From a virus, in the IMG/VR virus record IMGVR_UViG_3300037313_001714, positions 54,454-118,453 of that record: DNA of 64,000 nt. One strand, 5' to 3'. Made by a program: the position numbers and the translations under genes. The notes beneath the pieces were generated by a model, which ran no database searches, was not told the DNA's origin, and saw only the letters and a program-made list of their open reading frames with translations. Below are positions 1-1,686 of the stretch, piece after piece. Each line of letters begins with the position of its first letter. Positions within the stretch are counted from its first letter, which is position 1.

Positions 1-629
1 GCGATCAGCTCGATCGCGCCCTTCTCGCCGATGCCGCCCACGCCGCTGATGACGTCCGAGCTGTCGCCCATGAGACATTTGCGCTCGAGGAACTGCAGCG
101 GCGTGCGGCAGCCCGTCCATTCGTAGAAGTTGCGGGCCGTGACCAGGCGCGAGCCGTCGCGCATGTCGCGCCAGAAGACGTTGCGCCGCACGAACTGCAG
201 CCAGTCACCGTCGCCGGTGATGCAGCCGATGCGGTGACGCGGATCGACGCTGAGCTTGCGCACGAAGTGGCCGGCCAGGTCGTCGGCCTCGTGAGTGAAC
301 GCCGTGATCTGGCGGATGCCCAGGTGCCGCAGCAGACCCTGGATGTAGGGCTTCTGGCTGGCGTAGGCCTCCTTCATGGCCACCCGCTCGGGCGTCGAGC
401 GCCGGTTGCTCTTGTAGTCCGGGTGCAGCGCGAAGCGCCACTCGGCGCGGCCGTCCCACAGCACCAGCGGCGTCGCGCCGGGATAGTCCTGGCGCAGCGT
501 GCGCATGTCGATCAGCATCCCGTAGGCGGCCTGCGTGGGCTGGCTGCCCGAGGTCAGCTTGGTGGCTTGCTGCCAGGCGTAGCCCAGCGCATTGCCGTCC
601 ACCAGCAACGTGAACTTGTCGTAGTTCAT
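1..629 (-). CDS. 5'-3' exonuclease (PolI N-terminal / T4 RNase H-like), runs off the left edge
   Basis: Translated by hand from ATG at 629 (absent from the ORF track): MNYDKFTLLVDGN...DYKSNR...EADDLAG...ITGDGDW...MGDSSDVISGVGGIGEKGA, the typical flap/5' nuclease motifs. Confidence 0.88.
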   Translation of the reverse strand, partial: MNYDKFTLLVDGNALGYAWQQATKLTSGSQPTQAAYGMLIDMRTLRQDYPGATPLVLWDGRAEWRFALHPDYKSNRRSTPERVAMKEAYASQKPYIQGLLRHLGIRQITAFTHEADDLAGHFVRKLSVDPRHRIGCITGDGDWLQFVRRNVFWRDMRDGSRLVTARNFYEWTGCRTPLQFLERKCLMGDSSDVISGVGGIGEKGAIELI

Positions 630-634
630 GAACA

Positions 635-717
635 AGGAGGTCGCGTGTGGGACTCGAACCCACCTGGCGGAGCGAAGCGGGAAGCTCCGCGGGCCTCACC
701 CGAAGCCGAACGCGACC
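635..717 (-). ncRNA. Non-canonical tRNA-like cloverleaf (8-bp acceptor, 5-bp T stem)
   Basis: GGUCGCGU-UC-GGCUUC(GGGU)GAGGCC-C-GCGGAGC(UUCCCGCUUC)GCUCCGC-CAG-GUGGG(UUCGAGU)CCCAC-ACGCGACC-UCCU; four fully paired stems and a canonical T-loop fill the SSB-exonuclease intergenic gap. Confidence 0.65.
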
Positions 718-726
718 GTGTCCGCT

Positions 727-1569
727 TTACGCGGTCGTGTCGATGTCGCCCAGCAGGTCGTCCAGCTCGGCGTCGAGGGCGACACCGGCGTCCGGTGCAG
801 TGCGGGCGGCGCCCGCGGCGCCGTTGCCGTTCACGCGCGCGCCGATCGGGGCGGCCGCCGGACGCGGCAGGGCCGTGGTCGGGGTCGCGGGCGCTGCGCC
901 CGGTGCCGGCAGCAGGCCAGCGACCGTGTTCAGGGCCGCCAGGGCGCGCTGCTCGCCCTCGGTGCTGTCCTGCTTCACGTAGTCATCCAGGTCCGTCACC
1001 TTGTCCTGCACAGCCTTCGGGATCGGCGTGCCAGGCTTCATGCTCATGGTGGTGGTGTAGCGCGTGTTCAGACCCGTGCCTTCGCGGTTCACGACGATTT
1101 CGTGCCCCTTCTCGGGGTCCAACACGGCTTCCGCGCCGTTCTCGATGATCATTTCGAAGATTTGCGTCAGCACCTGCTGCGCCACTTTCGTCACCTTCGG
1201 CGTGTTGGGCTCGGACGAGTCCAGGTGCAGCGCGTTGACGAGGTGTTCCTTGCTGGACTTGGACTTCGCGAGGACTTCGGTTGTGGTGTCGTCCGGGGCG
1301 CTGGCGATCAGCGCGCGCAGCGCGTTGCAGGTGTTGCACGGCTTGCCGTCGGTGGCAGCGGCGCAGACATAGACGGCCTGGAGTTCATCGGCCGCGTTCT
1401 TGATGAAGTGCTGGCCGAAGTCGCGCCAGAACTGCTCGGGGTTCTTCGGGTTCCAGCCGGCGAACAGCCGGATGCGGTTCTTGCCTTGGTTGAAGCCGGC
1501 GGCGCGCTCGATGCGCTTCATGGCTTGTTTCTTGGAGGCGATCAGGGCAGCGATTTTTGCGGCGTCCAT
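727..1569 (-). CDS. Probable single-stranded DNA-binding protein (T4 gp32-like)
   Basis: RIRLF...FWRDFGQHF, Cys cluster VCAAATDGKPCNTC, acidic tail ELDDLLGDIDTTA; next to recombination/replication genes. Start placed at MDAAK (1569) because the upstream ATG overlaps a promoter. Confidence 0.6.
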   Translation of the reverse strand: MDAAKIAALIASKKQAMKRIERAAGFNQGKNRIRLFAGWNPKNPEQFWRDFGQHFIKNAADELQAVYVCAAATDGKPCNTCNALRALIASAPDDTTTEVLAKSKSSKEHLVNALHLDSSEPNTPKVTKVAQQVLTQIFEMIIENGAEAVLDPEKGHEIVVNREGTGLNTRYTTTMSMKPGTPIPKAVQDKVTDLDDYVKQDSTEGEQRALAALNTVAGLLPAPGAAPATPTTALPRPAAAPIGARVNGNGAAGAARTAPDAGVALDAELDDLLGDIDTTA

Positions 1570-1657: not shown

Positions 1658-1686
1658 ATTATACCTCACCGGTGACTTACTGACGA
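1658..1686 (-). promoter_or_regulatory. Sigma-70-like promoter with the operator in the spacer
   Basis: TCGTCA-17 nt-TATAAT; operator ACCTCA-CCGG-TGACTT at 1663-1678. Confidence 0.6.

Follow-up and report, generated by a model that had tools for sequence, protein, structure and literature searches.

Among the substrates of RNase P are tRNA-like structures of phage RNAs (C4 of P1/P7, CI of P4 and M3 of phi80) and co-transcripts that join an mRNA to a tRNA, such as secG-leuU. Processing of this type sets RNA ends and affects the expression of neighbouring genes. Among tRNAs themselves, a 13-bp acceptor/T helix is, to our knowledge, otherwise used only by tRNA-Sec, together with SelB, and the long variable arm of tRNA-Sec is needed for SerRS. 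Non-canonical, tRNA-Sec-like cloverleaves of bacteria and phages have been described as allo-tRNAs and as (8/4) tRNA-Ser and tRNA-His (Mukai et al. 2017, PMC5389517). In these RNAs the branch has 12 bp (8/4 or 9/3), the V-arm is long and the anticodon loop has the normal 7 nt; some have been proposed to be regulatory non-coding RNAs, and several were shown to decode (PMC5389517).

The element described here is a real, unusual and singleton tRNA-like RNA, and more likely an RNA-processing signal than a decoding tRNA. It lies in a phage record of IMG/VR (118,453 bp, 127-bp terminal repeats, G+C 66.7%), the right-hand 64 kb of which is the whole stretch of DNA that was analysed, hereafter the window. 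The phage belongs to a group with genomes of 105-120 kb that contains Rhizobium phage RHEph10, Pseudomonas phage nickie, Stenotrophomonas phage ANB28 and the SSU5-like phage-plasmids, and its nearest exonuclease homologues have their home in the Burkholderiales. The features of the locus are collected in Table 1.

Table 1. Positions, in window coordinates, of the tRNA-shaped element, its parts and the flanking features.
Feature	Position	Strand	Description
tRNA-shaped element, 82 nt (ARAGORN)	636..717	(-)	acceptor, D arm, aberrant anticodon arm, T arm, discriminator U, CC
Acceptor stem, 5' strand	710..717	(-)	8 bp
Acceptor stem, 3' strand	639..646	(-)	pairs: 717-710 with 646-639
D arm	692..707	(-)	6-bp stem, one G-U, 4-nt loop GGGU; tRNA-Sec type
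Anticodon-arm equivalent	667..690	(-)	best fold: 7-bp stem + 10-nt loop
T arm	647..663	(-)	5-bp stem, canonical loop UUCGAGU
ACCUCCUU	634..641	(-)	acceptor end, discriminator U, CC, UU
5'-3' exonuclease (FEN-type) gene	1..629	(-)	ATG 629, no Shine-Dalgarno site, runs beyond window start, 340 aa in total
gp32-like single-stranded-DNA-binding protein (SSB) gene	727..1569	(-)	likely start ATG 1569
Promoter-like site TCGTCA-17-TATAAT + operator-like palindrome	1658..1686	(-)	upstream of SSB gene

The element occupies the 97-nt spacer between the SSB gene (Pfam PF08804, PHROG 1192; stop at 729-727) and the exonuclease gene (PF02739 and PF01367), beginning 9 nt past the SSB stop, ending 5-9 nt short of the exonuclease ATG and running in the orientation of the operon; a DNA polymerase III alpha gene lies further upstream of the SSB gene. 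The sole promoter-like site nearby is the one upstream of SSB, and a terminator scan of the spacer gave no terminator-like site. Since that promoter-like site lies just upstream of SSB, the SSB gene, the element and the exonuclease gene are probably one transcript, and the element is probably transcribed as part of the SSB-exonuclease operon RNA. The ORF-maximal ATG of the SSB gene, at 1659, overlaps the -10 box of the promoter-like site (minus strand, 1569-1690), which also carries an AAGTCA..TGAC palindrome. The true SSB start is probably ATG 1569, which fits the N-terminus of a related SSB; it has no Shine-Dalgarno (SD) sequence, and its leader is only C/A/U-rich. Starts that lack an SD occur elsewhere in this phage too, that of the SSB gene among them.

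An initial annotation of this DNA had described a complete cloverleaf on the minus strand, and every structural detail of it is present in the sequence, namely the stems of 8, 6, 7 and 5 bp, their loops and the tail. The D stem pairs 707-702 with 697-692. The arm in the place of the anticodon arm pairs 690-684 with 673-667 around a 10-nt loop at 683-674, of which nine positions are pyrimidines, and the variable region of this best fold is 3 nt (666-664). The tail, U-CC-U at 638-635, is followed by the same 5 nt before the exonuclease ATG at 629 that the annotation had given. Standard pairs stand in all 26 positions of the stems (one of them G-U), and both the T-loop and the GG of the D-loop are intact, which argues for selection on the fold. 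The features of an RNase P substrate are present as well: a coaxial acceptor/T-arm helix, a T-loop/D-loop elbow and a single-stranded tail starting N-C-C (here U-CC). The folding energy is only modestly better than that of shuffled sequences (z = -2.07) and is unremarkable alone; consequently, the evidence for the element is its tRNA-specific shape and motifs, not its energy.

ARAGORN and Infernal/Rfam, both proposed in the initial annotation, gave different views of the same structure. ARAGORN detects the element and labels it tRNA-Gly(UCC), the sole tRNA called in the 118-kb genome; only 2 hits arose across 60 dinucleotide-preserving shuffles of the whole genome. With introns permitted, the program makes 2 further, implausible calls in the genome, with "introns" of 24 nt and 2089 nt. 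In Rfam the one meaningful match to the element is tRNA-Sec (RF01852; 39.1 bits, E = 2.7e-6), which falls short of the gathering score of 47 bits, and the general tRNA model RF00005 matched nowhere in the genome at E <= 1. A scan of the window with Rfam returned nothing at gathering score.

The ARAGORN label rests on an alternative fold of the anticodon arm, with a 5-bp or 6-bp stem, a 7-nt loop CUUCCCG (anticodon UCC) and an unpaired variable region of 8-9 nt. This fold is 5.8 kcal/mol less stable than that with the 7-bp stem and 10-nt loop, with a predicted population of about 6e-5, and its position 37 is C instead of a purine. A 7-nt loop with U33 and an NCC anticodon is seen only in this higher-energy fold, and because of its cost the stable form is without a normal anticodon loop. 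The earlier statement that the element has no usable anticodon is thus correct for the stable fold, but it needs qualifying insofar as a suboptimal fold does present UCC.

With bacterial tRNA-Sec (selC) the element shares the 8-bp acceptor and 5-bp T stem, that is, the 13-bp branch, the 6-bp D stem with a 4-nt loop ending in GGU, a two-nucleotide connector and, in the UCC fold, a possible 6-bp anticodon stem with a loop starting CUUC. It differs from tRNA-Sec in having a 10-nt loop, or an alternative 7-nt loop that reads UCC and not UCA, and a variable region of 3 nt (or 8 unpaired) versus about 20 in selC. Moreover, its 3' end reads U then CCU, whereas selC genes, in every case where the 3' end is shown, carry G followed by CCA. 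The geometry that had been compared with tRNA-Sec at the outset, 8/5 with a 6-bp/4-nt D arm but without the UCA anticodon and the long variable arm, is therefore as described, and the G73 discriminator of tRNA-Sec is missing as well. With no UCA, no long variable arm, no G73-CCA and a sub-threshold score, we rejected an assignment to tRNA-Sec. When the model of the element was run on 151 Burkholderiales genomes, its best hits were selC (33-39 bits) and tRNA-His (28-31 bits). Burkholderiales selC is unrelated to the element in the sequences of its acceptor, D stem and anticodon stem, and a recent capture of host selC or tRNA-His was rejected, as only architecture and T arm are shared.

Like the allo-tRNAs, the element has a long acceptor stem and a long D stem with a tetraloop (PMC5389517). 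In contrast to them, its branch is 8/5 (13 bp) rather than 8/4 or 9/3, its variable region is short with no long V-arm, and its loop has 10 nt, and it was not accepted as an allo-tRNA. To the C4/CI/M3 RNAs and secG-leuU the likeness is one of mode of action, with a tRNA-shaped unit forming part of a longer RNA from a phage or an operon. However, the element has neither sequence nor Rfam match to C4, no antisense target was found for its loop, and its cleavage is a prediction from its shape. It is best placed with the tRNA-like structures known from phage and operon RNAs, its own geometry being that of tRNA-Sec. That it might be an attP site is unlikely, as the cloverleaf is full-length, lies inside a replication operon and has no exact match in the genome collection.

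The search for homologues covered 17 loci found through the SSB protein, 3 annotated phages, 2 metagenome loci and 85 further loci found by exonuclease alignment. ARAGORN found no homologue of the element in 107 related and other loci, and no tRNA in any of the relatives recovered. Its covariance model matched none of 84 related loci, none of 5 whole related phage records and nothing in the genome that carries a provirus with a 65%-identical exonuclease, host genome included; that provirus is the closest relative compared at the DNA level. Exact and gapped pattern scans of the viral and genome collections and blastn against phages and plasmids likewise returned no homologue. The spacers between SSB and exonuclease genes of related phages, the comparison that the initial annotation had called for, were all without the element wherever they were recovered. 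Exonuclease homologues of 66-73% identity (P0002-P0007) are known as proteins only, and the spacers compared are from more distant relatives; the one metagenome scan gave relatives at 54% only. The element is thus a singleton, with no homologue in about 110 related loci and the collections scanned. In four complete related genomes (110-114 kb) and a partial one (82%) there is no tRNA of any kind, and the genome of the phage itself has no CCA-adding enzyme (PF01743), no RNA ligase (PF09414) and no tRNA-repair genes.

Three tRNA calls in other viral contigs were noted along the way. The best match of the element's model (43 bits) is a tRNA-Val(UAC) in a 407-kb jumbo-phage contig (L148:5276-5351), which has a 24-nt stretch of variable loop and T arm identical to the element and is itself a canonical 7/5 tRNA with CCA. 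The other two ARAGORN calls, in viral contigs unrelated to the phage, are a tRNA whose anticodon has four bases (aaga; 413-kb contig, L151:1673-1768) and one whose anticodon loop has six nucleotides (58-kb contig, L133:3232-3303).

All relatives recovered keep the order of SSB, then exonuclease, and their spacer has a conserved layout: a GC-rich hairpin and a T-run, together an intrinsic terminator, and then GGAG 5-8 nt ahead of the start codon. Among the 14 closest relatives inspected, whose exonucleases are 50-65% identical, 11 have hairpin, T-run and GGAG; one (L034) has the hairpin but no clear T-run, and the spacer could not be read in two (L038 and L030). The layout recurs in four more distant relatives (36-55%). 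The loci, from phages and proviruses, with a strong hairpin, T-run and GGAG, about 100 nt upstream of the exonuclease, are L024, L025, L029, L031-L033, L035-L037, L039 and L131; in L025 and L039 a palindrome, AAGTC-N-GACT, comes right after the SSB stop.

The element and the terminator with SD of the relatives have the same position and orientation in spacers of similar length. The relatives, however, have a simple GC hairpin, a T-run and GGAG, whereas our phage has a four-arm cloverleaf with neither T-run nor SD. That the exonuclease gene lacks an SD, as had been claimed, is confirmed by the duplex of its start with the anti-SD, at +0.4 kcal/mol versus -6.4 to -8.5 kcal/mol in the relatives. 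Because the length of the spacer is similar to that in the relatives, the change is a replacement and not an insertion. Judged from this comparison of spacers, the terminator and SD are the ancestral occupant of the SSB-exonuclease spacer, and the element is a lineage-specific replacement of terminator and ribosome-binding site, a point that is new relative to the initial annotation. The element was also considered as an intrinsic terminator in its own right and rejected, since it has no T-run and the terminator scan was silent.

We hypothesize, tentatively and as the reading that we prefer, that the element does not decode but acts in cis, as a tRNA-like module for processing or stability. 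According to this hypothesis it would serve as RNA punctuation inside the SSB-exonuclease operon transcript, having taken the place of a leaky intrinsic terminator and an SD site. Two lines of evidence bear on the first part of this claim. First, the 26 pairs, the elbow, the N-CC tail and an anticodon arm that is not that of a tRNA make the element look selected for shape and not for decoding; the perfect 7-bp helix with its 10-nt loop and the minute share of the UCC fold point to a non-decoding RNA. Secondly, there is no decoding rationale, since the codon GGA makes up just 2.3% of the Gly codons of the phage and the genomes of its relatives are tRNA-less; codon supply was therefore rejected as an explanation. 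The element was initially called a tRNA mimic, and a cloverleaf of 8/5 tRNA-Sec type for which decoding is unlikely fits that name well.

As to mechanism, the acceptor/T-arm stack and the elbow of D- and T-loop make the element a likely substrate of RNase P, and a cut would be expected between 718 and 717. RNase P would act on the 5' side, possibly with trimming on the 3' side, and the element may in addition be a compact, nuclease-resistant fold that protects ends. Processing at or beside it would separate the abundant message of the gp32-like SSB from that of the exonuclease and the genes downstream, and would set the relative stability of the two. In its simplest form the role would be that of the lost terminator: the element would, without termination, uncouple the SSB message level from the levels of the exonuclease and the genes behind it. 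The exonuclease would then be translated independently of an SD, from a short pyrimidine-rich leader. Both the cleavage by RNase P and its effect on expression are what we infer from shape and location. A role in processing or translational control had been suggested from the start; the operon location makes it plausible. The anti-SD tail pointed out there lacks statistical support.

The hypothesis should be interpreted with some caution. The element is a single sequence with no homologue, and neither conservation nor covariation speaks for it. A cut by RNase P would strip the SSB message of a protective 3' hairpin, and both the tail, CCU and not CCA, and the C at nucleotide -1 are suboptimal for bacterial RNase P. 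Moreover, the SSB gene is itself without an SD, and the SD-less start of the exonuclease need not depend on the element. The modest folding energy also counts against a processing module.

Among the alternatives, the one that survives best is a neutral relic, in which case illegitimate recombination would have brought in a tRNA gene (Sec, His or Gly type) that overwrote the spacer and fell out of use, with the phage tolerating the loss of terminator and SD. Much in the data agrees with such a history: the element is an orphan in a tRNA-less phage family, its anticodon arm is aberrant, its 3' end is CCU whereas tRNAs of the host order encode CCA, RF00005 failed and the cut-off for tRNA-Sec was missed. 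The 24-nt identity to the jumbo-phage tRNA-Val fits an origin from a tRNA, and the SD-less starts elsewhere in the phage show that such starts are found apart from this spacer. However, decay should yield mismatches, yet none of the 26 pairs is broken and even the abnormal arm forms a perfect 7-bp helix. The capture would also have cost the phage two signals, retained by nearly all sampled relatives, that lie upstream of a conserved gene for replication. On balance we regard a relic as rather unlikely, though it is a history to be taken seriously.

A trans-acting mimic or decoy is a further alternative, and one that we find unlikely. Here an RNA of about 80 nt, once freed from the transcript, would titrate or mislead a tRNA-binding factor, which might be a host defence nuclease that cuts tRNAs, an enzyme of modification, the CCA-adding enzyme or a sensor of uncharged tRNA. 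Phage tRNAs do counter tRNA-targeting defences, and an intact elbow and acceptor joined to a non-decoding anticodon arm, with expression predicted from an operon of replication genes, would suit this purpose. Against it, nothing specific speaks for a decoy: the loop, which is the usual target of the nucleases, resembles no loop of a host tRNA, the phage has no RNA-repair or CCA-adding genes, and the element is absent from relatives that presumably face similar hosts.

Returning to the processing module, a stricter form of it is that RNase P cleavage at 717/718, with 3' trimming after U-CC, yields a leaderless or near-leaderless exonuclease mRNA. Leaderless translation after tRNA punctuation is found in mitochondria. 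The CC runs straight into an in-frame UUG at 635, with the AUG at 629, and under such processing the mRNA would start at, or no more than 6 nt from, its start codons. We consider this form improbable.

Decoding would require the element to be a genuine, odd tRNA-Gly(UCC) that uses the alternative anticodon fold and has its 3' end trimmed and repaired to CCA. The ARAGORN call speaks for this, as do the 6-bp stem and the 7-nt loop starting CUUCC, as in the loops of tRNA-Sec and tRNA-Gly(UCC), and the CC of CCA is encoded. U73, C35, C36 and G1:C72 match what we take to be the identity elements of bacterial GlyRS. Of the reference set (U73, G1:C72, C2:G71, G3:C70, C35 and C36), however, only U73 and G1:C72 are present outright; pairs 2 and 3 are G:C and U:A, so that C2:G71 and G3:C70 are missing, and C35 and C36 are found solely in the minor UCC fold. 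The energy of that fold, the C at position 37, a 13-bp acceptor/T helix belonging to tRNA-Sec and SelB only, the silence of RF00005, the rarity of GGA and relatives that need no tRNA further make a decoding tRNA very unlikely.

The weakest alternative, a functional ACCUCCUU tail that mimics the 16S rRNA 3' end and controls translation by pairing with SDs or by masking exonuclease initiation, draws on an exact 8-nt identity at the usual place of an SD, before a gene that has none, but is highly improbable in that the 8-mer occurs 2 times on the sense strand versus about 1.3 expected, three of its nucleotides are locked by pairing inside the acceptor stem, and no partner was found. The 8 nt are identical to the last 8 but one of 16S rRNA of E. 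coli type, and the identity pointed out in the initial annotation is real as a match, though statistically unremarkable; we take it for a side effect of U-CC-UU standing behind an acceptor end ...ACC. SD sequences were rejected as partners of the tail, the nearby AAGGAGG matches all being Lys-Glu codons inside genes, and a search for an antisense target of the 10-nt loop gave only matches at chance level inside genes.

Two other explanations of the spacer were tried and discarded. Translational coupling through an ORF that ends at an ATGA overlap fails, as no start codon occurs in 118 codons of that frame. On the plus strand, a perfect AAGGAGGT followed by 5 nt and GTG (634-649) opens an ORF of 111 codons (634-982) with non-coding composition; it is antisense to SSB with a GC2 of 0.79 and was not accepted as a gene, and its apparent SD, AAGGAGGT, is simply the complement of the element's tail.

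In conclusion, the presented data would, if the element is functional, mean that a phage has evolved a tRNA-shaped RNA as operon punctuation or expression control and not for decoding, and that a conserved terminator and ribosome-binding site were swapped for a tRNA-shaped device. Its 8/5 shape with a short variable arm would then join the known non-canonical cloverleaves. The locus offers a compact and easily cloned test case for the action of RNase P on mRNAs, for SD-independent initiation downstream of a structured RNA, and for the use of tRNA-Sec geometry outside selenocysteine decoding. If, instead, the element is a relic, it would be a dated example of tRNA capture that overwrote regulatory signals without killing the phage.
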